A DNA stretch of 33,515 nucleotides from Chiloscyllium plagiosum (taxonomy: Eukaryota), in assembly GCF_004010195.1 (NCBI RefSeq), contig NC_057753.1, positions 7,108,696-7,142,210 on the forward strand, in the 5' to 3' direction. The position numbers and the translations under genes were made by a program. Positions 1 to 33,515 of this stretch are shown one piece after another. The notes beneath the pieces were generated by a model. That model was given only the letters and a program-made list of their open reading frames with translations. It had not been told where the DNA came from and did no database searches. Position 1 is the stretch's first letter. Every line of letters begins with the position of its first letter.

Positions 1-532
1 GAGGAAGAGGTGGGGAGTGGTGTCGGTGTAATTACGGAAGATCAACTGCTGTACGTAGCCAACAAAGAGACAGGCATTGCTGGGGCCCATACGTGTGCCC
101 ATGGCTACCCGTTTGGTCTGGAGGAAGTGGGAGGATTCAAAGGAGAAATTGTTAAGGGTGAGGACCAGTTCGGCCAAACGAATGAGAGTGTCGGTGGAGG
201 GGTATTGTTGGGAACGTCTGGAGAGGAAAAACGGAGGACTTGGAGGCCCTGGTCATGGTGCATGGAGGTGTAGAGGGATTGTATATCCATGGTGAAGATG
301 AGGCGTTGGGGGCTGGGGAAACGGAAGTCTCGGAGGAGGTGGAGGGCGTGGGTGGTGTCTCGAACGTATGTGGGGAGTTCTGGACTAGGAGGGATAGGAC
401 AGTGTCGAGGTAGGTAGAGATGAGTTCAGTGGGGCAGGAGCACTGAGATGATGGTTTGGTGATGGGCGGTGGGGTCAAGGTCAAGGGGGCGGAAGGAAGA
501 GGTGTCCTCGAGTTGGCGTTTAGCTTCAGCGA
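1..532 (-). mobile_element. Penelope-like element reverse-transcriptase fragment (frameshifted, internally deleted)
   Basis: The reverse strand encodes IAEAKRQLEDTSSFRPLDLDPT, CSCPTELISTYLDTVLS, FTMDIQSLYTS and NNFSFESSHFLQTKRVAMGTRMGPSNACLFVGYV, which are PLE RT motifs. It is absent at the matching position of copy B (~20450). Confidence 0.88.
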
Positions 533-686
533 TGGCTGAAGATTGGGTTCCATAGATAGGGAAAGAGATGAAACCAGGGTCATGCAAAGAAACTGGTCGT
601 AAATAATATTGAAACAAAAACAGAAATCTGTGTTGGGACTCAGCAGAATGTGTCCGAATCTGTGGGGGGAAGACTGGTAACCCGCG

Positions 687-1122
687 TGAAAAAATATTCA
701 AATTAATGAATTGACAACAAAGGTGCTGGTTTGATTACCGTCTGTGCCTTACCATTTGGTATGTATGACACGTTCAGCAAATGGTTACCACATCCTGGTG
801 CAGTTCAGGCCAATGAAAAAATATTATACCGTCGCCTGAGCATTTCCTCCCCTGAGCTGACCACGAGCAGCGAGTTCGTGTGCCTCATGTAACACCTTCA
901 GTTTGAAAAAATATTCAAATTAATGAATTGACAACAAAGGTGCTGGTTTGTTTCTCGTCTGTGCCTTACCATTTGGTATGTATGACACGTTCAGCAAACG
1001 GTTACCACATCCTGGTGCAGTTCAGGCCAATGAAAAAATATTGTACCGTCGCCTGAGCATTTCCTACCCTGAGCTGACCACGAGTAGCGAGTTCGTGTGC
1101 CTCATGTAACACCTTCAGTTTG
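687..1122 (+). repeat. 217-bp direct tandem duplication (687..903 and 904..1120) inside the Gypsy integrase remnant
   Basis: Both copies start tgaaaaaatattcaaattaatgaattgacaacaaagg and end aacaccttcagtt with few mismatches. Copy B (~20617..20835) has only one unit. Confidence 0.95.
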
Positions 1123-3122
1123 TCTGCTCCCAGTGCTCTGGTGCACTTCGGCCCAATACCCTTCTGCACTAACCAGCCGTGATCTCCATTTCTGTCTTGG
1201 AATTCTGTATTCTAGATTACAACCTCCCAGAAAATGTTTTGCCTCCTTTCGTAGTACGCCTACACAAATAAAACTTTTCGTAATGTTGTCTTGCTACTGC
1301 ACGTCTCTTAGCTTTCCACGACGAAACACTCCCGTCTGATCCTCGGCCTGTTCAGGTTTTTCCTGCACCATTACGTCAATCAGGGTGTCTGCTAATTTAA
1401 CTTCAACTCCTTCATCTTACTCTACTTTTCGCTTCGTGGTGTTTCTTATGATAGTCAGATCTAATTGCTGCACAGTCTGGGAAAATACCAGGTTATTTCT
1501 ATTTTAACTCTTCAGTTTTTTGGACATTCTTGGGCGTTTCCACAACATGGGGTGTCACTCCCACATTGGATCTTGCCAAATCATTCCCAAGAACATACTG
1601 AAATCCTGAAACTGACACTCTGTCAATCACTCCCATTGGAATATCCTCAGACTTAAGTTGATATTCCAACCAGATCTTACATAGGGGAACGCTAAGTTTC
1701 AGTCCATCTATCCCACAGATTACACACTCATGGCTTACAAATCAATAAGACTGCGTGTTTGCTCATCTTTCACGATCAATTACTGATGAGAACCTGCATC
1801 TCTGAACATTAGGTTTTGTTTGTATTTCTTCCCCGTTCTTTCGGAAGAAACATGAGCCACAAAGGCGAAATCTTTTTTGAGATAAGGTACTAACTCCATA
1901 CTGAGCCATTGCCTAGACTGTGCTCTCTCCTGCAGCTCCTCGGCTCTTTTTGGGGTTATTTTAATACCTTCACGAATGTCTCTGGCTTAGCTTCGCTTAC
2001 CACATTTTTTTTTTCACAGCATCTTTCTTGACTGGGCAGCACTGCGAATTTACATGTCCAACTTTACCATAGTTGAAACACCTGATGTCTTACCCATCCT
2101 CTCGCTCCTATTGGGCATTATTTTAAAAATCTTGCCAGTGCTCTCCACTCTTGTTTAAGTATTTTAGGATCTCCCTTCTCCTAACTTCTATCCCTCACAG
2201 GTCGAAACTTTGTTCGCAAACTTGTTTTCTGAAGCAACGTGTATTCAGCTGCTAATTCTGCTGCCCTTCCCATTTCCTGAACTTTCTGTTACCCCACGTG
2301 AATTCTTACCAGTTTTAAAAGTGAGATTTTAAAATCATTCAGCCGAATAATCTTTCGGAGAGACTCAGTGGTCTTATCAATTTTTAAAGCAAGTACTCAC
2401 CGAGCAAAATGACCATATTTAATTCTTTGAAACTCAAGGTAAGTCTGACCTGTTTCCTTCGTTATGTTTGTGAACCATTGTGTGTATGCTTCCAATTCCA
2501 ATTGATGAACACTTAAAATAGACTGTTTAACCTCTTCCTAGCCCCTTGACACCTCATCTGACAGCGTGACAAGTACCTCACGAGCTGTGCCAAACAGGTG
2601 TATGTGAATTACCATTAGCCATAAATCTGCCGACCATTCTATCATCCGAGCGAAAGTTTCAAATGAAAGAAATAAAGGTTCAAAGTCTTCTGCATTAAAC
2701 CTTAGCAGCGTAGTGATATATTTACATATCACTGCCGATTTTTTTTAATCTTATCCTGTTAACTTGTCTTTGCTGACGAAGCCACAACTTCTCAAGTTCA
2801 AACTCTCGCTCTTTCTGTTTTTCCATTTCTTCTTTCCATTTTTTTCTCCCTTGCTTCTCTCTCCCTTTCTGTCTCCCTTTCTTCTCACTCTCTTTCTTTC
2901 TCCTGTTCTTCTCTCTCTCTCTCTCTTTGCTCAGCGAAGAACCTTCTCTCCATCCCTTTTCTCTCGCATTTGCTCTCTCTCTCTATCTTCTCATTCCACT
3001 TTCCTCAATTGTAATTTATGTTTATCTTCGTCTGCCGCTAATGTCCATTTCTCTGACACACCAAAGCAATTCCCTGACAATTTCATCATTACTTCCGTCC
3101 TCCGATAAATCCCAAACTACCT

Positions 3123-3478
3123 TCTGGTTGTAGGTTTGCTCGCTGAGATGGGAGTGTTTTTTTTTCAGACCTTTTGTCACCACACTATTTTGTAAATGAA
3201 GTTTCTTTTGCTTGCTTTTTGTATGGGTCTTCCAAGTTCATTAGCTGCTTTTTTTTGTAAAATACTTGGCAAAACCACTAAATATCACATTGGACCAACA
3301 GGAAGAAAACTAGCCACAAGGATACATGAACATCAACTTGCCACAAAAATGAGAAGAACCACTCTCATTAATATCTTTACATATATGTGAGAACGGGAAC
3401 CACTTCGACTGGGCCAACCACAGAAAATGATGTCACCGCAGAAAATAGCGTAGTCACAGGTAGTGACGACACCAACCG
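3123..3478. mobile_element. Penelope fragment with internal inversion (pLTR piece on -, GIY-YIG piece on +) inserted in the Gypsy gag, copy A
   Basis: The + strand encodes KYHIGPTGRKLATRIHEHQLATK (GIY-YIG). The - strand has a pLTR end (ggtgacaaaaggtctg...ctcagcgagcaaacctac). It ends in ~18-bp acaggaaatgacatcacc-like repeats. Confidence 0.78.
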
Positions 3479-3699
3479 GCTTTGGGTGATTTCCAACACG
3501 CATTCAGCACTCTACGTCATAGTGCAATACAAAACTAACCATAGTGGTAGTGGTATTAAAAGGAAATGGAAATGTGAAATTTGAGACCTGACATCAGGTC
3601 TCATTTCAACTCCATTATGCTCTTCACTCCAACTGACAAGTAAGTGATTAACTAGCAAAGTTCAGATATCTCTTGAGACGATGCAGCCTCCTTTCCAAG

Positions 3700-5490
3700 G
3701 GTATTCTGTCACTTTTTTTTATTTCAAAGTGTGCTTTAAAACAGAGGATCCATTATGTCTGGATAAATTTATTGAAAAATCGTTCAAGTTTTATGTAAAC
3801 ACTTGTACAACGAATAACGGAATGGCCAGTTCTCAAAGTTCAGTGCACGAATTAGTTTGGTTTTGGACAGCTGTCTTTCTTAATGTACTGTTCAAGCTTT
3901 AGATGGGAACGCAAAAAAGCAGCTGAGGACCGAGTGAAGCAATTTCATGCCGATTGCTGGTCCTTCTGACATCTTTCCTGCAAGAACCTGAGTTTGAAAG
4001 TCCCTTTTCGCCATAGGGAGTTATTGGGACGTTACAAGAAATTGAAAGTGCATCATTAAGTTGTGACAGAGTCGAATGAGTTCCAACTATTCACGCGATT
4101 CTAAATTTGACTTTCTTTTGTTTGTGCGTAAATAAATTGTGTTTTGTTGAAAACAGAATGTTTGAGCGAACTGCATCAGTCCCGGAATATCCATTACACA
4201 ACCGCTTAAAAAAACCAGAAATCTTTGGATCTGGGCTACCTTTTTGAACTGTTGTGAGGGGGTCTGACTGCTACATGAAGACTGGGGTACCATCGCTGGA
4301 TTTGCTTTCAGATTTTGATTTGGTATAAGGGTCGAAGGAATCAATATAGGCGAGTGGTCGCTGTTAGAGTCTATTGTGCTGGGCATTGCAGTCGTTTGTT
4401 TTAAGCAGTACTTGATGTAGTAATGGCTTCTTCAGTCCACAAGAGATTTATGGGGATGGAAAAACTGACTTTGTGATCTTTCCAAAATGCGATCAAAGAA
4501 AAGCCGCTGGAATTAGCAGTCAAGCTGGAGTTGAAGCTGCCTCCTTCCATGAGGAACGAAACGACAATTTCAGCATTTCAATTTGCATAAAACCCCATCA
4601 TAATCTTTAGATTTAGTGAAAAATTCAATTGAGAATGAAGCAGCTTGAGATACAGGCAAAAGGAAAGGAGCGAAAAAGACTTGAAACTGTATGAATGACG
4701 ATTAAGAGTCAAGTTAAGAGGGAAAAAAACCGAAATGTCCTTGCCGAATAAAAAAAGAAAGGTACACGGAGGAAAGGAAAGAAAGAGAAAGATAGCTTGA
4801 CTGTAGAAATTGACACTTAGACAGGAAAGTCAGCTTAAAAGAATGGTGATGAAGGCTGAAGGTAAGCTTAGTGTGAAAGAGAGGTGTATGAGCAAACCCA
4901 TGGCAGCAAAAGGCCTGTTGGGAATTTATTCAAATGTATTCAATCAGGGACTCCATTGGTCTAGAAGGATGGAGAAGCCTTTTTCCATCTCTTTTGACAT
5001 GGTGGCCAAAGAAATGAAGGGGACAGTGACCATGTGGATTTTGCTTGTCGATTTGAGCTGGTGAGCTACTTGCATCACTATCAGATGAGCTATTTGGGCC
5101 GTATGAGGTGGTGAAGACGGCAATTTTAGGAGCAAATCAGCTGTTACCAGAAACCTACAGGCAGCATTTCAGTAAGCTACGGAGGGACAATAGTCAAACC
5201 TACATTGATATTTAAAGGATAGAACGAAGTAATTTTGATAGGTGGATAATGGTATTAAAGATACAGCCAAACTATGACGATTTTAGAGACAATATTATTT
5301 TGCTGCAGTTCAAAAAATCACTTCCTGAAGTCGTGGGAAATCATGTTGAAGAGCTGAAAGTTAAAACGGAAAGATTAGCTGACGAAATGGCGGCTTGGTT
5401 GAATAATTAAATTTGGCTTCCAAGGTCGATTTCAATCTGTCAGGGACAGAAATAGGGCAAACAAACAATCCTAATGTAGCAACGGAAAGG
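3700..5490 (+). mobile_element. Second decayed Gmr1/SCAN-type Gypsy element: probable LTR (~3700..4281), PBS-like site (4283..4304) and gag remnant (~4420..5490), copy A
   Basis: Gag remnants AIKEKPLELAVKLELKLPPS, FSISFDMVAKEMKGTVTMWILL and FKKSLPEVVGNHVEELKVKT-RLADEMA. The sequence tggggtaccatcgctggatttg resembles a degenerate tRNA-Pro PBS. LTR limits are uncertain. Confidence 0.75.
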
Positions 5491-5494
5491 CCGA

Positions 5495-5803
5495 AGCATT
5501 AACTGTGTCAGCCCTGCCATTCCTTCTGTTGCCAAAACGAATGAAAGCATCTTTATCTAAATTAAACTCCATCTGCCACCCCTCAACTAATTGGCCAAAT
5601 TAGTCAGGCTTTCTTACTGACCATGAAGCCTAAATTCGCATCCGAATCGTTTACACAAAAGTCAAGCAACAGTGGTAACACCACCTATCCCACATCTGAT
5701 TACAGGCCACCAATCTCAAAAAAAAACAATTCCCACTTACCCCATTTTGTCTCCTACCGTCAAATCAAAATTCCATTCAATTGTCAAGCTCTCCTTGATT
5801 TCG
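5495..5803 (-). mobile_element. Degraded CR1 LINE RT fragment
   Basis: The reverse strand reads WQMEFNLDK-like (aaactccatctgccac). Its distal part is paralogous to ~26850..27035. Confidence 0.6.
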
Positions 5804-6178
5804 NNNNNNNNNNNNNNNNNNNNNNNNNNNNNNNNNNNNNNNNNNNNNNNNNNNNNNNNNNNNNNNNNNNNNNNNNNNNNNNNNNNNNNNNNNNNNNNNN
5901 NNNNNNNNNNNNNNNNNNNNNNNNNNNNNNNNNNNNNNNNNNNNNNNNNNNNNNNNNNNNNNNNNNNNNNNNNNNNNNNNNNNNNNNNNNNNNNNNNNNN
6001 NNNNNNNNNNNNNNNNNNNNNNNNNNNNNNNNNNNNNNNNNNNNNNNNNNNNNNNNNNNNNNNNNNNNNNNNNNNNNNNNNNNNNNNNNNNNNNNNNNNN
6101 NNNNNNNNNNNNNNNNNNNNNNNNNNNNNNNNNNNNNNNNNNNNNNNNNNNNNNNNNNNNNNNNNNNNNNNNNNNNNN
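5804..6178. other. Assembly gap (375 N)
   Basis: Run of N. Confidence 1.
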
Positions 6179-6632
6179 CTACTAAGGATAGCTGTTCGTG
6201 TCGTTTCGTGGCTAGTTGACATCAACTAGCCACGAAACGACACGATCAGCTATCCTTAGTAGCTACACACGCAGACAACAAGCAACATGAATTTGACTGG
6301 GACAACACTACTATCATAGGTCAAGCCAGACAGAGAACAGCCAGGGAATTCCTAGAGGCATGGCATTCATCCACAAACTCCATCAACAAACACATCGGCC
6401 TGGACCCAATATACCAACCACTACAGCGGACAGCTGAAACTGACCACCGGAAGCGGCACTGACACACCACTATAAACACCGGAGGAAACATCAAAGAAGC
6501 GCTTCGCAGGAGGATCCCAAGCACTGATGATGTCGCCTAGCCAGGGGACGAAACGTTTGCAACAAAAACGTCCAGCTCGGCGAACAGAACCACAACAACG
6601 AGCACCAGAGCTACAAATCTTCGCACAAACTT
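6179..6632 (+). mobile_element. Well-preserved Penelope 3' end: GIY-YIG C-terminus (6220..6462) plus pLTR, preceded by an inverted copy of its own start
   Basis: Open frame HQLATKRHDQLSLVATHADNKQHEFDWDNTTIIGQARQRTAREFLEAWHSSTNSINKHIGLDPIYQPL...TGA. 6179..6219 is the reverse complement of 6222..6262. It is absent from copy B. Confidence 0.9.
6521..6560 (+). ncRNA. Minimal type I hammerhead ribozyme motif in the Penelope pLTR
   Basis: GCA-CUGAUGA-U-GUCgCCU(agcc)AGGgGAC-GAAAC-GUU-UGC: both core boxes, helix II (6 of 7 pairs), the palindromic ACGU in place of helix III, and a 3-bp helix I (GCA/UGC). Confidence 0.78.
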
Positions 6633-7110
6633 TGATCAGATTTATGTTTAAAAGTGTGGAATATTTATCGGCAATGTTATGATAAGTTCGGATGTAGGTC
6701 ACTCACCGGGAGTAGCTCTGTGACAGCGCCACGGACAGCAAACGAATGCTATTCTTTGTATCTGCTTGTTTAAGGGTTGATAATCCGCTCCATCTATGAT
6801 TTCACCGAAAGCGAATCGCAAACAGCGCATTTGTATGTTCAACAAGACCTGCAGCATTTGAAGAACATGGTGCACTACAAGCTTAGTTTTAGGCAGTGAC
6901 AAAAACATGCTGGCATTGAAACAAACATTAGATTTTCGAATTTAGAGCAGACAATATTGTTGTCATGAATGAGAGTAAAGGGAACAAAAATTGTTTTCTC
7001 ATCATGTAACTGTGAAGTGTAACCATGTATTACAATCCAAGAGCATGAACGAAGACATTTATGACACGACTGAGGATGACGTTTTTCATTCGGAGAATGG
7101 TGAGCCTGAT

Positions 7111-7375
7111 TAGATTCTGGATTAGATTAGATTAGATTACAGTGTGGAAACAGGCCCTTCGGCCCAACAAGTCCACACCGACCCGCCGAAGCGCAACCCA
7201 CCCATACCCCTACATCTTTGGACTGTGGGAGGAAACCGGAGCACCCGGAGGAAACCCACGCAGACACGGGGAGAACGTGCAAACTCCACACAGTCAGTCG
7301 CCTGAGGCGGGAATTGAACCCGGGTCTCCGGCGCTGTGAGGCAGCAGTGCTAACCACTGTGCCACCGTGCCACCC
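7111..7375 (-). mobile_element. HE1-type tRNA-derived V-SINE (about 60-bp internal deletion), specific to copy A
   Basis: Head ggtggcacggtggcacagtggttagcactgctgcctcacagc, B box ggttcaattcc, V-domain tgcgtgggtttcctccgggtgctccggtttcctcccacag, (TCTAA)n tail. The empty site is at ~28461..28480 in copy B. Confidence 0.92.
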
Positions 7376-7589
7376 ACATTTACTGATCATTTACTGCTGC
7401 AGAGAATGGATGACGCCAAAACATTAAATGTTTCAAAACATAGCTCAGTGTATTTCTGAGGGCTTCAGGATTCAAATGTAGAGGGAGCAAGGGCAAGGGC
7501 ATAAACATTTGTGGGATTGATGGTCAGAAATAAACATTTTGAATGTCGAGTAGACTTGATCGTCTGAACGTACTGTGAACACAGAAAAG

Positions 7590-9780
7590 ATAGTATAGAA
7601 CAGTACTGCAGAGTACATGCCCTTCAGCCCTCTACGATGAGCTGAGCTTTCATCCCACTGTACAATCAAACTGATTGACGTACCCTTCATTTTGCGATCC
7701 TCCCTGTTCCTATACAAGAGTCGTTTAAACATCCGAAATGCATCTGACTCCATTACCACTGCTGGCAGTTCACTCCACGGACACATCACTTTCCGTGCAA
7801 AAGGAAGCTACTTCTGACATCTCACCAAAAATCTTTCGCCAATCAATGTAAGGTTATGCACACTCGTGATATCTATTTCTGTCTTGGGAAAAACTCTTGG
7901 GCTACACACTTTGTTTATGCCTCTGATCATCTCGTGCACACCCATCAAGTCATCTCTCATCCTTCTTCGCTCCAATGAGAAAAATTCTCGGTCCCTAAAA
8001 TATCTTCATCAGACATGCTCTCCAGTCGAGGCAGCATTTTAGTAAATTTAATCTGCAACTTCTCTACAGGGGCATATCCTTCCTATCACGAGGCGATCAG
8101 AACTGAAAACAATATTCCAGGTGTTCCATAATTAGTGTTACATTCAGCTGAAGCATAACATCGTGGCTCTTAAACTTAGTCCCCTGCCAATAAAAGACAC
8201 CAAAGCGTTCACTTTTGTTAAGAACCCGATCAACTTGAGTGGCATCTTTGAGGGATCCGTGTACATGAAACCCATAACCCCTCTGTGCCCAACACTGCCA
8301 AAATCCTGCCTTCAAACCTGTAACCTTCATTTAAATTCGAACTTCCAAAATGAATCACTTCTCCCTTTTTCAGTTTGATTGACATATTACACGAATCTGA
8401 AAGGGTCTGCTTCCTTTCAATATCCCATTGTCAAATCAAAACAGGTCACGACACTACCCACAACTCCACCACCTTTCTTGTTACCGGTAAACTTACTAAT
8501 CAACACTTCCACTTCCTCATCCCAGACATTTGTGAAAATCACAAAGAGCTGAGGACCCAGAACTAACCGCATTGTAATTCTCCATCCCCTAATTAAATAC
8601 AGTCCCATAATGTCTGCTTCTATCCCTCACCATGACTATTATAATGATCAAGAGTTTTGATCACTATCACCGAAATCTTCTCCAACTTAGAGATATGCCA
8701 CCTGACTTGACTCGTTTCCAAGCATTAAATCTATTGTGGCCTCCACTCTAATCGTCTTATCTCCACACTGAGTGAAGCATCCTTCACAGACACAGCTGAC
8801 AAAATTTGTTCCATTCAATTTATTTTCCCCAAGGAGGTGCTAATCAATATTAAGAAAGTTGATGTCAACCATTAGAACAACCCTGTTAATTTCGCCCCTT
8901 TCCAAAATCTGTCATCCAGTCTGCTCCTCCATTTATCTGTTGATATTGGGAAGCTGTGGAAAACTCCCAACAAATTGAGTGTTTATTTCCTTTTTCTGGC
9001 GTTCATCCATACCGACTCAATAAGAAAACTCTCGTCGACAACCTCCCTTACTGCAGCTGTGATACTACCTCTGATGAGCACTTCCACTCCAGTACATCTT
9101 TTCCTCCCTCCCTATTAATTTGAAGCATGTAAACTGCAGAACATCCAAAAACCATTCCTACTCCTGTGGTCTAAGTTCATCATCCATATCGATAACTCTT
9201 TTCTGTTAAGATAACATACTACAATCAAACACACTGACTACAACGTTGTCCTGTCAAGTGTTTATCCTCCCTCACAGACTCTGTTCTCGCTGTCACTGCC
9301 TGTTCACCAGATACCCCCAACCTCTCATACGTAGCTCCGGTTCCCATGCCCCTGCTGAACTAGTTTAAACCTTCCTGATAAACTATTGCAAACTTCCCGC
9401 CAAAGATACTGGTGCCCTCCGGTTCAGATGGAACACGTCCCACCTTACCCAGAAATTATCGCAATGACGAACATATCTGAAGCCCTCCCTCCAACACCAG
9501 CTCTGCAGCGAACTCTCTTCCGAGCCTCACGACCATCGTACATGTTGCAATCCTGACAGCGCTACTCTGCTTGTCCTGCATTTTAGCTTCTAAACTAACT
9601 GCCGATGTTATTTTTTTTCCCGTCCTAATCCTTTTCTAACTATGTCATTCTCATCGATGTTTACCACGACATCTGGCTGTTTACCTTTCTCGATAAGAGT
9701 CCTGTCAGCTCGATCCGAGACATCCCTGATCCTGGCACTGAAGTGTGAACACATTCTTGGGGAGTATTGTTCGCTCATGA
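7590..9780 (-). mobile_element. Old CR1 LINE (ORF1 esterase, APE and 3' RT remnants; large internal deletion), copy A
   Basis: SARIRDVSDR...QPDVVVNIDENDIVRKG (SGNH ORF1, 9608..9799); LVLGPQLFVIFTNVWDEEVEVLISKF (RT); MLQLNVTLIMEHLEYCFQF; 3' UTR with a gggctgaagggcatgtactctgc-type end. Confidence 0.85.
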
Positions 9781-10021
9781 CAATCCTACTTCTAAACATG
9801 TTCTGATATTCAATGTTTCTCTTTATGCACGATACATGAATGAACTTATCACTGAGTGTTTAGGTAACATGCCTGTTTGTGCAATCAACTAATTTAGAAA
9901 TTTGTCCTGTTCCTACTGGTCAATGAACTATTCTTTATTCAGTACCGCACAATAACCAGGATAGCAAGAAAATACCTTTTTTCGACTTTGTGCTTCTTAG
10001 AATTTACCCAGCATGAAGCTT

Positions 10022-11569: not shown

Positions 11570-12135
11570 AAGCTTCAATGCCATTTTGCAGGATAATCAT
11601 GCCCCATATTCAAGTAACGGTGTTAAAGTGAATGCACGTTTCTCATAGTAAAAGCTTTGAGTATTTTTGTTATAACGTCAAACTGCTGCATTTGATTTTA
11701 GTATCTGTCATGAATTCTATTAATTGTTCGTCAGATTTTATTGCTGAAGCCCATTGCTTTTTTTAAGCTTTGACTCCTGAGGCTGAAAACGTTACCTTTA
11801 AAATGATAAGCTATCTGTACAATTTGAAAGGAAACATTAATAACATAAAGTCACCCAAAGCAAATATCCAAGAAGAAATCGAAGATTCATCATCAAGGAG
11901 TCTTTTGATAAAATATGTATTTTCGTCCACATTTTTACCAGGTCTTCAGATTTGTCTCTATAGAGATTTCACCACATTCTTCAGATCTTCTCTCATTTTT
12001 TTTTTTTCTGGGTTTCTGACAGCTGCATTCTACAGCAATTTCGGTCTCATCTGAGGTTTGGCTCCTTGGAGTGATTTTGCTGAATGATGCTCAATGAAAG
12101 TCAGGGAGACAGTGTGGTCTACAGGTACTGAGATT

Positions 12136-12438: not shown

Positions 12439-12586
12439 AAAGCAGAATTTTCAAGTAAGAGAGCAATCTTTGATTGTTTTCGGGTCTAAATTATAAGCAA
12501 AGCTACCGCTTTGGATCCAGGTCTGTGTTCGGATAGCTTTGATGTTAATTCATAGGTGAGACATCACTTCCGTCTTCATTGTACTT

Positions 12587-12592
12587 TTTATT
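12587..12592 (-). promoter_or_regulatory. Possible AATAAA polyadenylation signal of the GPCR
   Basis: TTTATT on the + strand about 260 nt downstream of the stop codon. The context is AT-rich, so it could be chance. Confidence 0.3.
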
Positions 12593-12852
12593 TTAACATT
12601 GATTCACAAAGTTGAAATTTGTTCCCTTTGAATTGATATACAATTTGAAACAACACAAGAATAGATCATAAAGAACAAAAAAATGCAGAATAAATTGCCC
12701 CAAAGCAAAACTAAGTAATGTGTGCAAAAAAAATGTTTTTGTATATATATATTACCAGAGTCCAGGAGAAGCTATTGTTTTAGAAATAAGTGAAATGAAA
12801 ACTTAACTACGTTGTTGTACTGCCAAAGCAAATACTGTTTCCTTAATCATGT

Positions 12853-13736: not shown

Positions 13737-13779
13737 CTGTCAGAGAAATAGAGAAGATCAGTCCTTCAAAAAAAGAAAT

Positions 13780-14476: not shown

Positions 14477-14559
14477 AGCTTTATATCCGTGTACCAATGC
14501 ATGATTGTAATTAGTGCGAAGATACTTACTACCAACATTTGAACGCCAACCATTGAATT

Positions 14560-23290: not shown

Positions 23291-23299
23291 CGTTTAAAA

Positions 23300-26010
23300 G
23301 GGTATTCTATCCGCGTTGTTTTTTTTTATTCCAGACTGTGCATAAACATAGAGGTTCCGTAATGTCTTCATATATTTGCTTGAAAAATCGTTCAACTTTA
23401 ATTTAGACACTTGTGCAATGAGAACGGAGTGGCCAGTTCTCAAAGTTCAGGGCACGGATTAGGTTGGTTTTGGCAAGCTGTTTTTTTTTAATGCTCTGTT
23501 CAAGCTTTAGGTTGGAACGCAAAAAAGCTGTTGCGGACCCAGTGAAGCACTTTCATGCCGATTCCTTCTCCTCCTGACATCTCTCCTTCAAGAACCTGAG
23601 TTTGAAATTCCGTTTTGGCCAAATCGAGTTTGTGGGACGTTTCAGGAATTTGGAAGAGCATCATTAATTTGCAAAAGAGTCGTTTGAGTGTCCAGATAGT
23701 TATGCGTTTCTAAATTTTACATTATTTTGTTTGAGTGTGAATACATGCTGCTTTGTTTAAACTGGGTGTTTGAGCTAGCTGCATCAGTCCTGGAATATCC
23801 ATTACACAACCGTTTAAACAAAAACAGGAATGTTTGGAACTGAGCTACCATTTTGAACAGTTGTGAAGGGATCTGGCTGCTTCATGAAGACTGGGGTGTC
23901 GTAGCCGGATTTGCTTTAAGATTTTGATTTGTTGTCAGGGTTGTAGGACTCGAATTTGGCGATTGGTCGCTTTTAGTGTCTCCTGGGCTGGGCGTTGAAC
24001 TTGTTTGTTTTAAGCAGTGCTTGATGTAGTCATGGCTTCTTCAGGCACCAAGAACTTTCTGAGGGTGACTTTGTGATTTTCCAAAAGGCGATCAAGGAAA
24101 AGCTGCTGGAATTGGGAGTCAAGCTGGAGATGAAGCTGCCTCCTTCCATTAGGCAAGAAAAGGTAACTAAAACAATCAGTCAGCATGTGAATTTTCTGGA
24201 AACGCCAGCAGAAGCTTTAGATTTAGCAAAACATTCAGTTGGACATGAAGCAGCTTGAGATAGATGCAGAAGAAAAGGAAAGGGAAAAAGACTTGATACT
24301 GTATGAATTACGATTACGGGCGAGTTAAGAGAAAAAGAACGAAATGTCCTTGCAGAATAAAAAGCAAGGTACAGGTAGGAAAGGAAACAAAGAGAAAGAA
24401 AGTTTGATCTACATAAATTAACACTTCGAAAGGAAAGTCAGCTTAAAAGGATAGTGATGAAGGCTGACGGTAAGCTGAATGAGGAAGAGAGGTAGATGAG
24501 CAAACATATGGCCGTCAAAATCCTGTTGGGAATTTATTCAAATGCATTCAATCATGGACGATATTCGATGAGATGGATATCGAAGCCTTTTCCCATCTCA
24601 TTTGACAAGGTAGCTAAACAAATGAAGGGACCAGTGACCATGTGGGTTTTGCTGATCCAAACTAAACTTGTCGGTTGAGCTAGTGCATTATTTGCATCAC
24701 TATCAGAGGATGTATTTGCGGCGTATGAGGATGTGAAGATAGCCATTTTAAGTGCGAATTAGGTTTTGCGACCAACTACAGACAGCATTTCAGTAACCTA
24801 CGGAGGGTCTATAGTCAAACCTACATTGAGATTTAAAGGAATAAACGAAGCTATTTTGACAGATGGATATGGGCGTTAATGGTACAGCAAATCCATGTCG
24901 CTTTTAGAGATAAGATTATTTTGTTGAAGTTCAATAAAAATCACTTCTCGAAATATGGGAAATCATGCGGAAGAGCTGAAAGTTGAAACGGTAAGATTAG
25001 CAGAAGAAAAGACGAGTTGGTTGAATAAATGAACTTCGCTTCCAACATCGATTTCAATCGGGAAGTAACTGAAATAGGGCAAAAGGAAAATCCCAAAGTA
25101 ACAACAGAAAGGTAGATCTCGGTGAAGATCACAAAGATAACTTACCACAGGATGAAAGGGAAAGCCGTGAAGGGGAAATGGAAGTGAAAAACCTCCAGTG
25201 CTTTCACTGCAATTAAGTGGGCCACTTGAAAGTACGGTGTTGATGTGTGAAAAAAAGCATAAGGAAGCCAGAAGGAGGAGAATCGGACAAGCCAGTTAAT
25301 TTTGTTACTTTTGGAACCGAAATCATTGTGGGATCTAAAAAGCTGCAGAAGAATGCACAACCTAGTCAGAGTCCAGTTAAGGAGAAATTGTCAGGTCATT
25401 ACGAAGGTTAACTTCACTCTCCAATGTCAGCGCAGCAGGTAAATAGTTTATAATAGGAAGAATACAGGATCCTCTCCATCTTTGGTGTTGGACGACGACG
25501 GTATATGTACCTTTGAAGGACTGTTGTCAGAAAAAAATGCAAGTAACGGGATTTTACGGTGAGACAAGAAGTGCTCAATTAGAGTGAAGTTAGAGTGCAC
25601 AGTAAAGAGTAGAGAAGTTGTGGTAGGAGTCCTGAATAAGCTCTCAGCTCCAGGAATACAGTTGTCCTTGCTGACGATGCAACTGGGTCACAGTCAGGAG
25701 TTCTGCCGACTTTGGTTGAAAAGCCAATGAAACCTCTGCTGCTGAACTTTTGCGGGAAACATATGTTTTTGTTTTTGCAGACTGTGTGAAAATGACGTCA
25801 TAAGGACAACAGTTGAAAGAAAAGTGATCAAAGAAGACAGATAAGAACCTTATAATGGAATTACGTGAGTTATTACTTGATCAAATGCTTGTGACAGAAC
25901 AGAAGCAAATGAATGGCAAAGTAGAAATCCTTCGTTCAGAGAAATTAACTGAGTAGCAGCAGGAGGATGAGAAGGTAAAGGAATTACCGGAGAGGTCATA
26001 CACAAACACA
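23300..26010 (+). mobile_element. Second Gmr1/SCAN-type Gypsy element, copy B: probable LTR, PBS-like site 23892..23913, gag, CCHC and protease remnants
   Basis: AIKEKLLELGVKLEMKLPPSIR; ISFDKVAKQMKGPVTMWVLLIQTKLVG; CFHCN*VGHLKVRC (~25199..25240); NTGSSPSL protease-like site (~25460); VVVGVLNKLSAPGIQ and GSQSGVLPTLVEKP. Confidence 0.8.
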
Positions 26011-26419
26011 GGCTGCAATAAGTGTGTGGTTGAAGTTTTTTCGGACCAGTTTGATTACAGCTAATAGATACTGGTTTTGGCAGTCAGGTTATTCGCTGAA
26101 AGTAGCCAGGCAGTTCAGAAGTTGCTGGTCCCAATGAAGCAGTTCTATGCTGGTCATCTCTCCCTGACCTCTCTCCTCTCAGACACTGTGTTTGAAAAGT
26201 ATTTTTGGTTCCAAGGGTATTTTATATGGATTGTTGCAAGCGTTTGGAACAGCATTGTTCAGTTGGGATGCTCTATTGTGTTTTCGGGCAGCTTAAGTTA
26301 TTCGGTAGTCTAATCTCTTTACTTATGTTCTATTTCCATATTGCTCAGAACATTTAGGTTTTCCAGCGTGTGTCCAAATGTCTTTTAAACGTTGTAAACG
26401 TACATGCACCAAAAACTCC

Positions 26420-27265
26420 ATGAGGCCGTTCATTCCATACACAAGTCACTCTCTTTCTGAAAGAATTGCCACTCAGATCTATTTTAACCTTTCTGTTCTT
26501 ACTTTACCAATATGCCATCTGGTTTTGAAGTGCGCTTCCTGAAAGAAAAGACCTTTGCTACTCTTTATTTCTTTGCCCGCAAGTCTTATAAACTATTATA
26601 AGTTCACCCCTCAATGTCCTGTGCTCCAGTGAACAGATCTAGCATTTCTTTATACCTCATACTGTCTAGTCGCAGCAGCATGCTTTTAAATCTTAACTGT
26701 AGCATCTTCAAGTTAATGCTATCATACCAGCAGCAGGGCGACCAGAGCTGTACACAACCCTAAAGAAAGGTAGCTGACCCATCGTCATGTTCAGTCTCAA
26801 AATGACGTCTCAATTCATACCTTCAACGTTTTGGTGTCCTTCGCCATGACTAACCATGACTCCTAACTTCGCATCCCAATCGTATATACAAAAGACAAGC
26901 GACAGTTGAACTCCACCCATCCCCTTAGCTGATGACAGGCCACCAATCTGAATAAATAAGTGTCGCTTGCCCCACTCTGTTTCATACAGTCAAACCACCG
27001 TTCCAATGAATCGTCAAGTTTTCCCTGATTTCGATATCATCTCAATTTGATGAATAACCTGACAGTGCGCAACCGAGTCAATGTCTTAACCAAAACCCAT
27101 ATGCACAACGCCTACCGCCCTGCCTTCATGTATCTTTTGGTTCATCCTGTCAAAAAGTCAATGAAATTTCTGAGACAAGATTTTCCACGAACAAACCGAT
27201 ATTGACTATCCCTAATTCGTCATTGCTTCTCCAAATGCATGCCAATCTGTCTCTCAGAATCCAGT
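26420..27265 (-). mobile_element. Degraded CR1 RT/3' fragment, copy B
   Basis: cagggcgaccagagctgtacacaa (antisense CVQLWSP), aatgaaatttctgagacaagattttcc (antisense GKSCLRNFI), caaaccgatattgactatccctaat (antisense IRDSQYRFV). Confidence 0.65.
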
Positions 27266-28669
27266 GGCGCAAATTATTCATGCAATTTTATGATCTTTGT
27301 CACCTCCTCCATTTTTTATGCAGGTTTTTTATTTAAATTGTTTTTCAAAGAGAGAAATCTCTTCGTTTACCGCAAATAAACTGCTCATAGGTACATGAGG
27401 CAACAGATAAATTGTCGACTCCAGTTCAATATTCATCGTGAACCCTGTGTGATTCGTAATTCTCCCCATTTTCTATCCAATGCTAAAATATATCAAAGAA
27501 AATCACTGTCAAGATCGCTCTAAAATGAAATAGTATTTTGCGCAGTAGATTTTATGAGAATTCTGTTTACTTTTTAGTTGACACCAGCACCCAGCAATCA
27601 TAATTTCGTTCATCATCCTTTCAAAATCTCCCCCATTCCATTCAAAGCAAAATTAGTTTTTAATGGTGTCGTCAATTAAAGTGCGTCTCAATTTGTAATT
27701 GTTTGGTTTATTTGAGAGAAAATTATTTTCAAAGATGAAAATATGAGAAAGCTAACTCTTCTCTGAGTGCATCCAACATCAGTGTAAAGCTGCCAATTTC
27801 AAATCATACTTGGTACATTCTGAATTTTTCAAGACTGTTTTCCGCGTTTCAACAGACAAAATTCAACTGATTCAATTAATTTATTGTGACAACGTGTGCC
27901 TAAATACAGTAAAATAATTTGTTTGTAAGGCATACAGAAAGGATAAAGTAAGCCAAGACATGCAGAGCATAAGTTTCATATAGAGGAAAACAGATAACAT
28001 CAAATGTATGTTTAAATGAGTGGAATATTTATAATCAATGCTATGATGAGTACCGATGTAGATCACTCACAGGGAGTCGCTCGCTGTCGGCGCCAAGTAG
28101 AACAAACGTGTGCTATTCTTTGTATCTGTTGTGTAAGGGTCGATAATCCGCTCCATCTATCCTTTCCCCGAAACAAAACCCACAGAACATTTGTATGTTC
28201 AACAAGTCCTGTTGCATTTGAAGTACATGGTGCACCACAATTTCAGTTTTAGGCAGTGAGACAAACATGCTCTCATTGAACCAAACATTAGATATTCGGA
28301 CATAGAGCAGACAACTTTGTTTTCATGAATGAGAGTAAAGAAAGCTGCAATAGTTTTCTCACCATGTAACTGTGAAGTGCAACCATGGATTTCAGTCCAA
28401 GTGCATGAACGAAGACATTTAGTACATGATTGAGGATGACGTTTTTCATTCAGAGAATGGTGAGCTTGATGATTTACTGCTGCAGAGAATGGATGAGGCT
28501 TAAAAAGTAAATGTTTCAAAAACGTACCTTTGCATGTTCCTGAAGGCTCCAGGATACAAATGGTAGAAGGAGCAAGCGGATAAACGTTAATGAGTTTTAT
28601 GGTCAGCAATAAACATTTTGAATATGGAGTAGACGTGATGGTCTGAAGGTACTGTAAACACAGAAAAGA

Positions 28670-30880
28670 CAGTATAGAACAGTGCAGCAGAGTACAGGCC
28701 ATTCGACCCTCGATGTTGAGACGAGCTTTCATCCCACTCTACAGTAAAACTGATTGGCGTACTCTTCATTTTACTATCATACATGTTCCTATACAAGATT
28801 CGCTTAAATATCCGAAATACATCTGACTCCATGACCACCGCTGACAGTTCATTCCATGGACCCACCACTTTCTGTGTATAAAGAACCTACATCTGACGTT
28901 TCGCCGAAAACCTTTCTCCAATCAATATAAGATTATGCACACTCGTGATATCTATTTCTGGCCTGTGTGAAACTGTTGGGCTACCCAGTTTGTTTATGCC
29001 TCTCATCATCTCGTGCACCTCCATCTATCCATTTCTCATCTTCTTCACTACAATGAGAAAAAACCCCGCTCCCTAACCTACATACATCAGACATGCTCTC
29101 CATCCAGGCAGCATTCTCTAAAGCTTGCATATCCTTCCTATCATGAATCGACAAGAACTGAATACAATATTCCAGGTGTTACATAATTAGGGTTACATAG
29201 AACTGCAGCATAACTTCGTGGCTCTTCAACTCAGCCTCCCTGCTAATGAAATCCACCAAAACATTCGCCCTTTTATGAACCCTATCAACTTGATTGGAAA
29301 CTTTGAGGGATCCGTGTAATGAATCCCAAAACCACTCTGTTCCCCAACACTGTCAAAACCTGCCCTCAAACCTGTAATCTGCATTCAAATTCGAACTTCC
29401 AAATCGAATCACTTCTCTCTTTTTCAGGTTGAATTACGTATTCCTCTAACCTGACGGGTTCTGCATCCTTTCAATGTCCCGTTGTTAAATCACAACAGGC
29501 CTCCAGATTAGACACAACTCCACCAACTTCCGTTTTACCGGCAAACTTACTAATCAACACTTCCAGTTCCTGATCCCAGTCATTAATGAAAATCACAAAG
29601 AGGTGAGGTACTAGAACTAATAGAATTGTAATTCCCCCTCCACCAATTAAATAATTTTCCATAATGTCTACTCCTCTCCCTCACCATGCCTAATTTAATG
29701 ATCAAGAAGTTGTGATCACTATCACCGAAATGTTCTCCAACTGAGAGATCTGCCACCTGACCTGATTCGTTGCTAAGCACCAAATCTAAAATGAACTCCC
29801 CTCTAGTCGGCCCATCTCCACACTGAGTGAGGAACCCTTCACAGGCACACCTGACAGAATTTGTTCCATCCAAATGATTTTCCCTCAAGATGTGCCAACC
29901 AATATTAAGGAAGTTGATGTCACCCATTACAACAACGCTGTTACTTTTGAACCTTTCCAAAATCTGCCATCTAATCTGCTCCTTCAGGTCTATGTTGGTA
30001 TTGGGTATCTGTGGAATCCTCCCAACAAATTGAGTTTCTCTTCCCTATTTCTGACTTTCACCCCTCCTGACTCAATAAGCAAACTCTCATCGACGGCCTC
30101 CCTTTCTGCAGTTGTGTTACTATCTCTGATTAGCAATTCCTCTCCACCACCTCTTTTACCTCCCTCCCTATTACTTTTGAAACAAGTAATGTGCAGAACA
30201 TTGGCGAACCATTCATACCCCTATGCTCTAAGTTCATCATCCATATTCCAAACTCTTTTGTGTTAAAATAGACACACTTCAATCAAACACATGGACTGCA
30301 ACGTTGGCCTATCAAGTGTTTATCCTCCCTCGCAGACTCTGCTCTCGCTGTATCTGCCTGTCCACCAGCTGCCTCCAACCTCTCATATATCGGTTCGGTT
30401 CCCATCTCCCTGCCAAATTAGTTCAAACCTTCCTGAACAGCTATTGCAAACTTCCCGGGGAAGATACTGGTGCCCCTCCCGTTCAGGTGCAACACATTAT
30501 TCTTGGTAAGGTCCCACCTTCCCCAGAATTTATCGTGATGATGCACATATCTGAAGCCCTGTCTCCTACACCAGCTCTGCAGTCACGTGTTCAGCTTCAT
30601 GCGCACTCTTTTCCTTGCCTCACGCCCGTGGTATATGTAGCAATCCGGACAGCACTACTCTGCTTGTCCTACCTTTTAGCTTCTAAATTAACTGCCTGTA
30701 TTTACTTTTCACGCCCACATTCCTTTCTATCTATGTCGTTCTCACCGATGTGTACCACGACATCTGGCTGCTAACATTTTCCCTTTAGGGTCCAGTGAAC
30801 TCGATCCTAGATATTCCTGAACTTGGCACTGAGGGGTAAATACACTTTTGGGGAGGATTGTTCGCTGTTGACAATGCTTC
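28670..30880 (-). mobile_element. Old internally deleted CR1 LINE, copy B (paralog of 7590..9780)
   Basis: APE motifs VVVMGDINFLNIGW...PTRGEFILDLVLSNESGQV...GEHFGDSDHN (29583..29960) fused directly to RT LVLVPHLFVIFINDWDQELEVLISKFAGKTEVGG. Confidence 0.87.
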
Positions 30881-31390
30881 TTCTGTACGTTCTCTTATAT
30901 TCAATGTTTCTATGAATGCACGATTCGTTAATGAACTTATCACTGAGTGTTTAGGCATCATGCCTGTTTGCGCTATCAACTAATTAAAAACTACTGCCTG
31001 TTTCATTTGGTCAATAAACTACGCTTTATTCAGTACTGCCCAATAACCAGCATAGCAAGAAAGGACCTTTCTTTGCGATTTTTTGTTTCTTAGATCTTGC
31101 ATAGCATCAAGTTTCAAAGTCATTTTGTAGAATAATCATGTCCCATATTCACGTAAATGTTTTGCAGTGCATCCACGTGTCTTACAGTAAAAGCTTTGAT
31201 TGTTTTTGTTATGACATTAAACTGGTGCATTTCATTTTAGCATCTGTAATGAAGTCCATTAATTATTAGTCAGATTTTACTCATGAAACCCAATTGCTTT
31301 TTTAAGCTTTGAGTCCCGAGGCTGAAAATCTCACCTTGAAAATGATATGCTATATGTACAATGTAAAATGAAACATTAATAGCATAAAGT

Positions 31391-33276
31391 GTAAAAAAAA
31401 AAGGAAATAAGCGGGCTAAAAGGGGTCATGAAATAGCTTTACCAACCAGAATTAATGAAAATCACAAAGCATTTTATTCTTATATCAGAAGCAAGCGGGT
31501 AAATAAGGAAAGGATTGGTCCACTAAAAGATAATGAAGGAAGGCTGCGTGCCGGACCTGAGATAATGTGTGAGATTCTGAATGATTACTTTGCATCAGTG
31601 TACAATGAAGAGAGGAACACGATGAACCTTGAGATTAGAGATAAAAGTTGGATTAGTGTCGATCACATTGGCATAAATAGGGTAGTTGTGTTAGGTATGC
31701 TCGAGTTTTTTTAGGTGCCTAAGTCGCCAGGACCGGAAAGGATCTATCCGACATTGCTGAGGCAGGCGAAGGAGGAAATAGCTGGGATCCTGACTTATAT
31801 ATTTTTGGCATCCTTAAACACTGGTGCGGTGCTGAAGGACTGGTAGATTGCTCATGTTGTCCCCCTGTACAAGAAGGGTAGTAGGCATATTCCGGGTAAG
31901 GACACACCAGTGAACCTGAAGTCCTTGTCGGGACGATGCTGGAGAGTGTACTCAGAGACAAGATGCATTTATATTTGGAAAGGAATGAGCTTATCAGTGA
32001 TGGGCAACATGGCTTTGTGTAGGGAAGATATTGCCCTCACAACATGATAGAGCTCTTCGAGGAAGTGGCCAAGTTGTTAGATGAAGGAAGAGATGTTGAT
32101 GTCATATACATGGGATTCAGTAAGGCGTTTGATAAGACCATTGCAGTCTAATGTAAAAAGCGAAATCACATGGCCAGCAGGGTGTTCTAGCTAGTAGGAT
32201 AAAGATCTGGTTGAGCAACAGGAGACAGAGAGTCGTAGTTGAAGAGAGTTTCTCGCAATGAAGAAAGGTGATAAGTGGTGTTCCACAGGGGTCAGTATTA
32301 GGGCCACTGTTGTGTATAATATACGTAAATGATCGACAAGAGGGTACTGTTGGTATGATTAACAAGTTTGCAGACGACACAAAGATTGGTGGTGTAGCAG
32401 AAAACATTAGGGACTGTCAGAGAATACATAAGAATATAGATATACTGGAGAGTTGGGCAGAAAAGTGGCAAATGGCTTTCAATCCGACCAATAGTGAAGT
32501 GATGCATTCAGGCAAGTCTTTTTCCAGATCGAATTATACAATGAATGAAAGAATCTTGGGAAACGTTAATGGGCAGAGAGATCTGGCAGTGCAGGTCCAT
32601 TGTACCCTGAAGGTTGCTGCACAGGTGGATAGAGTGGTCAAGCAGTCATATAGTATGCTTGCCTGCATTGGACGAGGAATTGAGGATAAGAGCTGGCAAG
32701 TCATGTTAAAATTTTACAAGACATTGGTTCGGCTGCATTTAGAATACTACGTACTGTTCTGGTCGCCAACATTACCAAAAGGATGTGGGGGCTTTGGAGA
32801 GGGTACAGAAAAAGTTTACGAGGATGTTGCCTGGTATGGACGGTACGAGCTATGAAGAGAGTTTGAGTAGGTTAGGTTTATCTTCACTCGAAGAAACGAG
32901 ATTGAGGGGGGATTTGATTGAGGTTTACAAAATCATGAAGAGTACAGACAGGGTGGATAGAGACAAGCTTATTTCCCAGGGTGAAGAGTTCAGTAACGAG
33001 AGGTCTCGCTTTCAAGCTGAGAGGTGGAAAGTTTAAGGGGGATACACGTGGCAAGTACATCACACAGAGGGTGGTAGGCGTTTGGAACAGAGGAAGGCAC
33101 GGCAGATTCATTTAATATGCATTTGACAGATGATTCAGGAGGTGGGGAGCAGAGGAACACAAATGCTTAGGAAGTGACCGACAGGTTAAGACAATACATT
33201 TGGATCGTCTCAGGCTTGGCGGTCCGAAGGGTCTGTTCCTGGGCTGTAAAATCTCTTTGTTCTTTTTACCTTGTTC
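31391..33276 (+). mobile_element. 5'-truncated CR1 LINE (frameshifted ORF2), specific to copy B, TAAAGT target-site duplication
   Basis: SGVPQGSVLGPLLCIIYVND...INKFADDTKIGG...WAEKWQMAFNP...LVRLHLEYYVLFWSP; LERVQKKFTRMLPGM...RLRGDLIEVYKIM. taaagt flanks it at 31385..31390 and 33277..33282; the empty site cataaagtcaccc is at ~11844..11856. Confidence 0.95.
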
Positions 33277-33515
33277 TAAAGTCACCCACAGCAAATATCC
33301 AATAGGAATTCAAAAAAATGTGCCCGCAAAACACAACGTGCAATCTTTTCTTTTGGGTTTTCAGTAAGTAAGGATGACAGTAAAAGAGGTGAAACTAAGA
33401 TGAATTATCAAGGATTCTTTTGCTAAAACATATATGTTCGTCCGCATTTTTATCAAGTCTTCAGATTTGTCTCAAAAGAGATTTCACCATATTCTTCAGC
33501 TCTTTTCTCAATTTT

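Follow-up and report, generated by a model that had tools for sequence, protein, structure and literature searches.

Two diverged copies around a receptor gene

Within the window (the whole stretch of DNA analyzed here, 33,515 nucleotides), a two-exon class A receptor gene on the minus strand (15559-15490 plus 13736-12853; 317 codons) lies between two direct collinear paralogs, designated copies A and B. Both the paralogy of the two segments and the position of the receptor between them had been proposed in the original prediction, and self-alignment of the window bore this out: nine blocks in the same order, at offsets of 19.5 to 21.5 kb between the copies, yielded 8,333 aligned bases with 83.4% identity (K2P 0.19) and spanned 8,437 of the 11,470 bases of copy A. 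The final base of copy B pairs with position 12000 of copy A. From there to the receptor stop (12853) the distance is 853 bases, in agreement with the approximately 850 bp predicted. The copies and their mobile elements are as follows.

531..12000, no strand: copy A, a retroelement mosaic of roughly 11.4 kb that represents receptor 3' flank and closes with a receptor tail; 83% identity to copy B
20453..33515, no strand: copy B, paralogous to copy A and interrupted where the window stops
7110..7383, no strand: SINE-like repeat, in A only; 78 to 93% identity to 15076-15389 and 19841-20150; site empty in B
7838..8581 in A (minus strand) and 29110-30044 in B: old decayed LINE, in both copies; tblastn E values of 4e-8 in A and 2e-17 in B
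10022..11569, minus strand: CR1-type LINE fragment, in A only; RVT_1 E 4.8e-28; site empty in B
31391..33276, plus strand: CR1-type LINE, in B only; RVT_1 E 2.9e-7; 6-base target-site duplication at its flanks, with the junctions read

The shared sequence had also been described as including stretches that are not transposable elements. At the right ends of the copies these turn out to be receptor sequence, namely 3' flank and a helix-8 tail. Elsewhere the shared sequence is partly decayed retroelement, with CR1-type reverse transcriptase and endonuclease matches (the endonuclease match in the shared LINE, with an E value of 9.4e-5, falls under the Pfam cutoff). Being common to both copies, this decayed LINE must be older than the A-B duplication. 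The name CR1 is presumptive, as are the labels gag-like and Penelope-like for other fragments; Pfam named none of the latter (0 meaningful matches in 14 frames), and four of eight pieces searched against Pfam were without a match.

Since the shared sequence is in part retroelement and the window carries two N gaps, it might be argued that A and B arose when members of the same transposon families inserted independently at two places, or that one haplotype was assembled twice. We consider this extremely improbable, with eight independent blocks sharing their order and orientation (a chance of about 1e-7 under random placement), receptor tails and flanks common to both copies, and empty sites accompanied by a target-site duplication. 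A double assembly is further contradicted by the 17% divergence, far above that of alleles, and by the exact or near-exact pieces of copy A found in sequencing runs X4 and X1.

The middle gene is a probable pseudogene

The receptor gene located between the copies, hereafter the middle gene, has the following features.

15490..15559, minus strand: exon 1, with the ATG, the first half of TM1 and a GT donor; tblastn E 2e-4 to 0.007 with five of six relatives
13737..15489, minus strand: phase-1 GT-AG intron, 1,753 bases long and containing a 100-N gap as well as SINE copies
12853..13736, minus strand: exon 2, of a probable pseudogene; 81% identity to XP_043538398.1 (Chiloscyllium plagiosum)
13563..13564, minus strand: site of an in-frame loss of 5 codons, among them that of the TM3 disulfide cysteine, a Cys in 122 of 122 relatives
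13315..13317, minus strand: in-frame TGA, codon 164, in ECL2 ahead of TM5; a residue occupies this column in 122 of 122 relatives

Membership of class A is indicated by the Pfam 7tm_1 domain in exon 2 (E 6.6e-15, with the stop read as X) and by the predicted model of a relative, P0004, in which the helices are present and which matches class A structures. A fold search with that model (mean pLDDT 70) singled out no family, GPR139 included: the class A fold is shared, and GPR139 ranked 32nd with 20% identity.

The spliced 317-residue product of the original prediction does not survive closer reading, because codon 164 of 317 is TGA and the frame is interrupted; together with the deleted cysteine of the TM3-ECL2 disulfide, this is not what would be found in a functional receptor. 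It was nevertheless considered whether the gene might be intact in life and the TGA an assembly error, since the stop was read from the assembly and its site lies outside the 40 of 585 read-alignment rows listed. This is a slim chance, given the independent lesions: besides the cysteine deletion, there are departures at 11 of 93 conserved columns (7 in the closest relative; median, 3.5), and the middle gene has a branch length of 0.17, versus 0.09 for its sister protein, XP_043538398.1, with which it groups with full support. We regard the middle gene as a probable pseudogene. At the site of the deletion, one contig from run X9 has 15 extra letters. Upstream of this gene, no 26-base array was found.

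Contigs from runs X1 and X4 (both organism A) point to further copies. Up to 15 contigs, among the matches listed, cover single exon sites, a depth that is not a copy number. A contig of 584 to 586 bases covers 13019-13591 with 82 differing letters, roughly the A-B divergence, and is 13 bases longer than the stretch covered, which would imply a frameshift. Other contigs, at 82% and 92%, extend out of the 3' flank and approach or enter the end of the exon, and a joint from 12733 to 13971 represents a copy without exon 2. In one single-cell RNA run of unstated tissue, of which 2% was read, depth on exon 2 was about zero.

Receptor tails at the right ends of both copies

The end of copy B had been thought to correspond to the approach to the GPCR at 12853. 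Its actual counterpart is a receptor remnant, A0, at the right end of copy A, and a matching tail, B0, closes the window.

11946..12022, minus strand: remnant A0, reduced to the last part of TM7, helix 8 and the tail, with one extra stop in the tail
33461..33514, minus strand: locus B0, the last 17 codons plus stop in open frame, running off the window
12439..12762, no strand: sequence flanking the middle gene on its 3' side, with homology to the A0 flank (11631-11944) and the B0 flank (31191-31389)

At the DNA level, A0 and B0 were the best and second-best matches to the middle-gene tail among 881 windows (scores of 56 and 55, each reached in 0 of 1,000 shuffles). Their matches to the family profile were modest and short (A0, model positions 311 to 345, E 0.024; B0, positions 318 to 346, E 0.04), and a chance-looking match at 7033-7149 came near these values (E 0.053). 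With receptor tails at both right ends in addition to the middle gene, the window contains three same-strand receptor loci; in a tblastn search with six relatives, only the two tails matched and no further receptor body was found.

The two tails resemble each other (45 of 51 bases identical) more than they do the middle gene (35 to 36 of 51), which belongs to a different sub-branch. They are closest to XP_048476855.1 and XP_059499058.1, and 12 of the 17 residues of the B0 tail are identical to those of the P0006 tail. The 3' flanks are related as well: they score 98 and 56, and in neither case did any of 300 shuffles reach the score; the same test showed no homology for two other stretches. 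These related flanks are the trace of an older duplication.

The body of A0 is missing past a junction at about 12012 to 12040, and contigs with a differing letter at 12028 and 12057 stop near 12022-12023. The window ends 12 to 22 bases short of the equivalent junction in copy B. A receptor paralog 0.8 to 1 kb past the window end, as originally predicted, would follow only if copy B shares the truncation of A, the repeated unit then being flank, dead remnant, full gene and 5' flank, with the paralog some 850 bases beyond the end. The invariant helix-8 Phe, kept in all 121 relatives with a residue at that position, is changed in both A0 and B0, so that the gene from which they descend may have been dead before them, and runs X1 and X4 contain a middle-gene paralog at about 82 to 85% identity, equal to the A-B divergence. 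Those contigs could sit anywhere in the genome, however, and the 17 visible codons of B0 are open, while A0 has its extra stop. Moreover, one X9 contig has a tail of the A0/B0 type joined to a receptor body: it connects 11991 to 12911, in register with the tail alignment (in which 12910 pairs with 11991), although this joint is a single contig from another species with 25 letters on its short side. On balance, we put the layout with a shared truncation at slightly under an even chance. As for B0 itself, the loss of the helix-8 Phe in common with A0 suggests that it is more likely dead than alive.

An elasmobranch receptor family

The middle gene is a member of a family of proteins annotated in sharks and rays in RefSeq as "probable G-protein coupled receptor 139"; these are automatic annotations with long frames, whereas the copies in the window are broken or cut off. 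Its closest RefSeq relatives are XP_043538398.1 (C. plagiosum, 81%) and XP_059498255.1 (Stegostoma tigrinum, 68%). The best 120 of 575 matches were all elasmobranch, from 11 species, in keeping with the predicted elasmobranch expansion, and species-specific blooms were apparent: in a tree of 121 sequences (FastTree, midpoint root), Heterodontus, Pristiophorus, Heptranchias and Scyliorhinus each form clades. Among the same best 120 of 575, at least 16 members lie on one 74.9-Mb Heterodontus sequence, at least 10 on one Scyliorhinus canicula sequence and at least 9 on one 9.3-Mb Heptranchias sequence, without adjacency being implied, and in one 90% cluster, four of five members are catshark proteins with consecutive accession numbers.

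A search of the Atlas returned three chordate "GPR139" clusters (154, 82 and 71 members) and invertebrate FMRFamide-like clusters, and nothing more specific. No description of the elasmobranch expansion was found in a literature search outside which most subscription papers fell, and none of the eight supplements of PMC13188829 that were searched matched. GPR139 and GPR142 have been grouped with protostome MIP and FMRFamide receptors in a study whose accessible part holds nothing on a shark expansion (PMC8514136).

Relation to GPR139 and variability of the binding pocket

The best solved-structure match of the family profile was GPR139 (PDB 7VUG and 9M42; 55 bits). A single family member scores only 35 bits against human GPR139, which is equal to its score against neurotensin receptor 1. 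According to the part of the literature consulted, GPR139 is highly conserved (PMC12775434), in contrast to this multicopy, variable family, and its pocket includes D84 (2x61), E105 (3x29), E108 (3x32) and R244 (6x51) (PMC12775434). With numbering by motif offset, none of these residues is kept in the elasmobranch family, where the commonest residues are Tyr at 2.61 (105 of 122), Leu at 3.29 (70 of 122), Thr or Asn at 3.32 (51 and 32 of 122) and Ala at 6.51 (54 of 122), Arg being absent from the five commonest at the last position. The designation "GPR139-like" therefore stands as a nearest-neighbor label and falls as a statement of orthology, given the 35 bits and the pocket acids and Arg that are not kept; by sequence, the family is only distantly like GPR139. 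Ligands given for GPR139 are aromatic amino acids, MSH-related peptides and dynorphin (PMC12775434, PMC12287315), and intact members of the elasmobranch family would probably not share the ligand recognition of GPR139.

A second, GPR139-like lineage, found in coelacanth, sturgeon, teleosts, amphibians, turtles and squamates and also carried by sharks, is about 28 to 30% identical to the family. In a tree covering the family and this lineage, without true GPR139 or GPR142 sequences, it formed a separate clade (support, 100) in which each species listed apparently has one gene. Like GPR139, it keeps the acids at 2.61 and 3.29 (each 119 of 119) and the Arg at 6.51 (118 of 118). It may be one of the GPR210A/B sets (PMC6504862).

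Relative to this sister lineage, the family varies in its pocket. Over 122 members, mean entropy was 1.65 bits at pocket positions versus 0.89 at other TM positions, compared with 0.74 versus 0.83 bits in 119 sister-lineage members of equal overall divergence; the corresponding tree-aware difference was reached in 36 of 20,000 permutations. The pocket numbering derives from motif offsets and a generic list. In a stricter test, against other outer-half positions, the family pocket was marginal (1.21 versus 0.98, P = 0.05), and most of the effect persisted when the mask was moved over by a single position (0.50 and 0.64 against 0.80), so that loss of constraint explains the variability as well as selection for new ligands does. 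The variability does not reside in the extracellular loops (ECL1, 0.86; ECL2, 1.40; ECL3, 1.42 bits; each below the sister lineage), whose conservation, like that of most TM positions, matches what is found in the single-copy sister lineage.

A probable slice of a receptor array

In all likelihood, the window samples part of an array in which elasmobranch-specific two-exon class A receptors stand head to tail and evolve by birth and death. The hallmarks of that process are present: tandem paralogs of two ages, pseudogenes beside intact relatives, and lineage-specific clades. The birth-and-death array of the original prediction is thereby upheld, except that the gene at its center is itself a probable pseudogene. 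An older duplication set the middle gene apart from the A0/B0 type, and a younger one (K2P 0.19) produced copies A and B, after which retroelements entered each copy independently. A0 lost its gene body, and the middle gene gained its stop and lost the TM3 cysteine. Unequal crossing-over between neighboring paralogs or shared repeats may have caused both the duplications and the deletion.

It could be countered that a repeat-rich region was duplicated with the receptors as mere passengers, pocket variability reflecting relaxed selection. At least two of the three loci in the window are broken, another copy lacks exon 2, the frameshift implied by the longer paralog contig would add one more, and the strict pocket test was marginal. 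Still, at least 120 long-frame members in 11 shark species hold 93 columns at ≥90%, loops and most TM positions are conserved as noted above, and the presence of members in rays and skates too means that the family has persisted over a very long span of evolution. Passive duplication seems rather unlikely to us. Under birth and death, intact members may constitute a repertoire of candidate sensors responding to a variety of small polar molecules or of peptides, as scaffold and signaling motifs are kept while pocket-lining residues change between copies; we would give this not quite an even chance.

More speculatively, and with rather low probability, sharks and rays might possess a large extra receptor repertoire that grew out of relatives of GPR139/142 instead of OR, TAAR, V1R or V2R genes, organized in tandem arrays, diversified in its pocket, and acting as a principal system of chemosensing or innate danger sensing, with the window recording the turnover of this repertoire. 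If true, it would offset the small known olfactory repertoires of these animals: cartilaginous fishes are reported to have very small olfactory receptor families, with 34 V2R genes and 4 to 9 genes in each other family in the catshark, in a report whose accessible text contains no word beginning with "gpr" (PMC10116579). A large, fast-turning family with a variable pocket, hidden under an automatic "GPR139" label, would be a candidate for missing sensory or immune receptors. The window itself exemplifies this on a modest scale, most of its copies being dead, but turnover is directly visible: duplication occurred twice within its 33 kb, one gene was truncated, another acquired a nonsense change, and each copy received insertions of its own. 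No sequence kinship of the family to the OR, TAAR, V1R/ORA as well as V2R/OlfC repertoires was shown; the likeness lies in same-strand tandem copies, pseudogenes, lineage blooms and a variable pocket.

Segmental duplication and its repeats

Self-comparison of the window resolved nine direct blocks shared between two segments, copy A (531-12000) and copy B (20453-33515). Realigned, the blocks comprise 8,333 bases at 83.4% identity (79% to 86% per block; K2P, 0.19), and the chance of a single order and a single orientation is near 1e-7 when eight are counted as independent; the collinear paralogs of the original prediction are thereby borne out. The offset between the copies moves in steps, from 19.5 to 21.5 kb, because of insertions private to each copy:

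10022-11569, LINE in copy A only, empty site in copy B
7110-7383, SINE in copy A only, empty site in copy B
31391-33276, LINE in copy B only, 6-base target-site duplication, empty site in copy A

Taken together, the collinear blocks and the copy-specific insertions with their empty sites mark an old segmental duplication. Scattered repeats, as an alternative origin, were ruled out by block order and orientation and by the empty sites, and two alleles were rejected on the basis of the divergence. An older LINE is common to both copies. In public contigs, 7 of 7 variant letters listed within 11602-11941 are those of copy B.

Other repeats were observed in and around the copies. Broken reverse-transcriptase-like frames (1-535), without a Pfam match and which we take to be Penelope-like, adjoin the left edge of copy A; homology between A and B may resume left of the window. 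Copy A alone contains a recent 217-base tandem duplication (687-1122; 96% identity). An 84-base, near-perfect palindrome (6179-6262), possibly an assembly artefact, adjoins a 375-N gap. Both copies also share a pair of decayed, gag-like segments, oppositely oriented and 58% alike; these are presumably Gypsy gag, a label to which Pfam gave no support:

2118-2621 and 5056-5362, gag-like segments in copy A
21975-22281 and 24643-25140, gag-like segments in copy B

Three receptor loci

Between the copies lies a two-exon class A receptor gene (the middle gene):

15559-15490, minus strand, exon 1
13736-12853, minus strand, exon 2
1,753-base GT-AG intron, minus strand

The predicted product of 317 residues agrees with the codon count, but the frame is interrupted, codon 164 being TGA in the assembly, at a site outside the 40 of 585 public-read rows listed. 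Lesions besides the TGA point the same way: the TM3 cysteine, kept in 122 of 122 relatives, is lost via a 5-codon deletion, and the protein deviates at 11 of 93 highly conserved columns (closest relative, 7; median, 3.5), a count exceeded by five annotated relatives, mostly partial proteins. The middle gene is thus probably broken. No 26-base array occurs upstream of it. In its 3' flank, 12130-12270 is the end of a very high-copy short repeat, where contig depth peaks; the window as a whole was matched by more than 9,000 contigs per public contig run.

With tblastn, weak matches to the receptor C-terminus appeared at the right ends of both copies, here termed A0 and B0. The middle-gene tail scored 56 against 11930-12040 (best of 881 windows) and 55 against 33445-33514 (second of 881), scores reached by 0 of 1,000 shuffles in each case, and a profile of 122 relatives ranked both tails directly behind exon 1 (model positions 311-346; E, 0.024 and 0.04). 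B0 has 17 visible open codons and a stop at 33461; A0 has the same tail plus one extra stop, and its receptor match stops near 12012-12040. The two tails are identical at 45 of 51 bases, compared with 35 to 36 of 51 for each against the middle gene, and resemble a neighbouring sub-branch of the family (12 of 17 residues matching a relative, P0006). Moreover, the 3' flank of the middle gene (12439-12762) is homologous to those of A0 and B0 (0 of 300 shuffles each). These tail identities and homologous flanks show three same-strand receptor loci, namely, the A0 remnant, the middle pseudogene and B0, which arose in two rounds of duplication, in support of the birth-and-death array originally proposed. 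Neither tail has the helix-8 Phe, which 121 of 121 relatives retain, and this loss suggests that the ancestor of A0 and B0 may already have been decaying.

The window ends 12 to 22 bases before the position equivalent to the A0 break-off; either the B0 receptor body would continue directly beyond 33515 or copy B would be truncated like A0, with a middle-gene paralog, as originally predicted, some 850 bases further on. The public sequence examined (three contig runs and one RNA run) shows paralogs somewhere in the genome, none placeable beside copy B. These paralogs are many, with up to 15 contigs covering single exon sites and contigs at 82% and 92% spanning the 3' flank and exon end. In both X1 and X4, two runs from one organism, a contig of 584 to 586 bases spans 13019-13591 with 82 other letters, and a joint from 12733 to 13971 skips 1,237 bases (12734-13970), including all of exon 2, which represents either a paralog or an allele without the receptor body. 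In X9, a run from another species, a single contig joins 11991 to 12911 in register with the tail alignment (25 letters on the short side). In two X9 contigs, the shorter side of 12028 (window 12022-12028) amounts to 49 letters; tentatively, the A0 junction may thus predate the split of the two species.

An elasmobranch receptor family

The best 120 of 575 matches all came from elasmobranchs (11 species), most of these proteins bearing the name "probable G-protein coupled receptor 139", and the family tree contains species-specific clades, in line with the predicted elasmobranch expansion. Among these 120, many members have a single sequence length within their species (at least 16 in Heterodontus, 10 in Scyliorhinus canicula, 9 on a 9.3-Mb sequence of Heptranchias and 7 in S. 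torazame), which denotes linkage, not adjacency. The closest zebra shark relatives sit on one 15.6-Mb sequence. Consecutive accessions in catshark (four) and Chiloscyllium punctatum (three) suggest adjacency or isoforms. Each of the 10 close representatives checked belongs to a shark, ray or skate. Among 10 distant ones, 5 carry the names of salamanders, coelacanth, teleosts or a caecilian and 1 that of a clam, and 4 list no species. In a 49-sequence tree built without true GPR139 and GPR142, elasmobranch members formed a single clade (support, 94), separate from a GPR139-like lineage also carried by sharks (support, 100); a link to a salamander lineage was unsupported (50).

Receptor arrays that evolve by birth and death are already known, and the family is present in RefSeq under automatic naming. 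We found no paper on its expansion in the literature searched, mostly openly available articles; the main text of two shark sensory papers (PMC11979771 and PMC10116579) contains no word beginning with "gpr". The window is a genuine part of an under-described receptor array, with most of its copies dead, and it draws its significance more from the family than from its own content.

Pocket variability

Entropy was computed over what we assume to be 25 generic pocket positions, numbered by motif offset. In the family (122 members), it was 1.65 bits at these positions versus 0.89 at 112 other TM positions, compared with 0.74 versus 0.83 in the sister GPR139-like lineage (119 members), overall identity being alike (61% against 64%). 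A stricter test, counting changes on trees and comparing outer-half positions alone, gave 1.21 for the pocket versus 0.98 in the family (p 0.05) and 0.41 versus 0.71 in the sister lineage (p 0.004); the difference in pocket between the two was attained in 36 of 20,000 permutations. Much of the effect stayed when the pocket mask was shifted by one position, and most was gone at two. These contrasts indicate that the family pocket has escaped the constraint evident in its sister lineage, with the scaffold retained. We give slightly less than even credence to the reading that the members form a repertoire adapted to a range of small ligands; relaxed selection may also account for the variable pocket. 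Almost no exon reads were present in one single-cell RNA run (tissue unstated, 2% read), a result that carries little weight.

Relationship to GPR139

The description of the family as GPR139-like stood in part: its profile ranks GPR139 first (55 bits), but a single member reaches 35 bits with human GPR139, a score on a par with that for neurotensin receptor 1, and the pocket residues differ. GPR139 pocket residues, as given in PMC12775434, are not kept in the family, whereas the sister lineage echoes them (acid 2.61, 119 of 119; acid 3.29, 119 of 119; Arg 6.51, 118 of 118). Judged by sequence, the family is best regarded as not GPR139. PMC6504862 gives names to sets related to GPR139/142 in coelacanth, gar and fishes; neither "shark" nor "cartilaginous" appears in it. 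The sister lineage itself (P0214 and P0289-P0406) is conserved, with GPR139-type pocket residues, across a range that reaches from sharks to turtles and squamates, and no mammal or bird occurs among the named rows of its best 120. Two of its records are named TMEM183A isoforms, which hints at TMEM183A as a neighbour.
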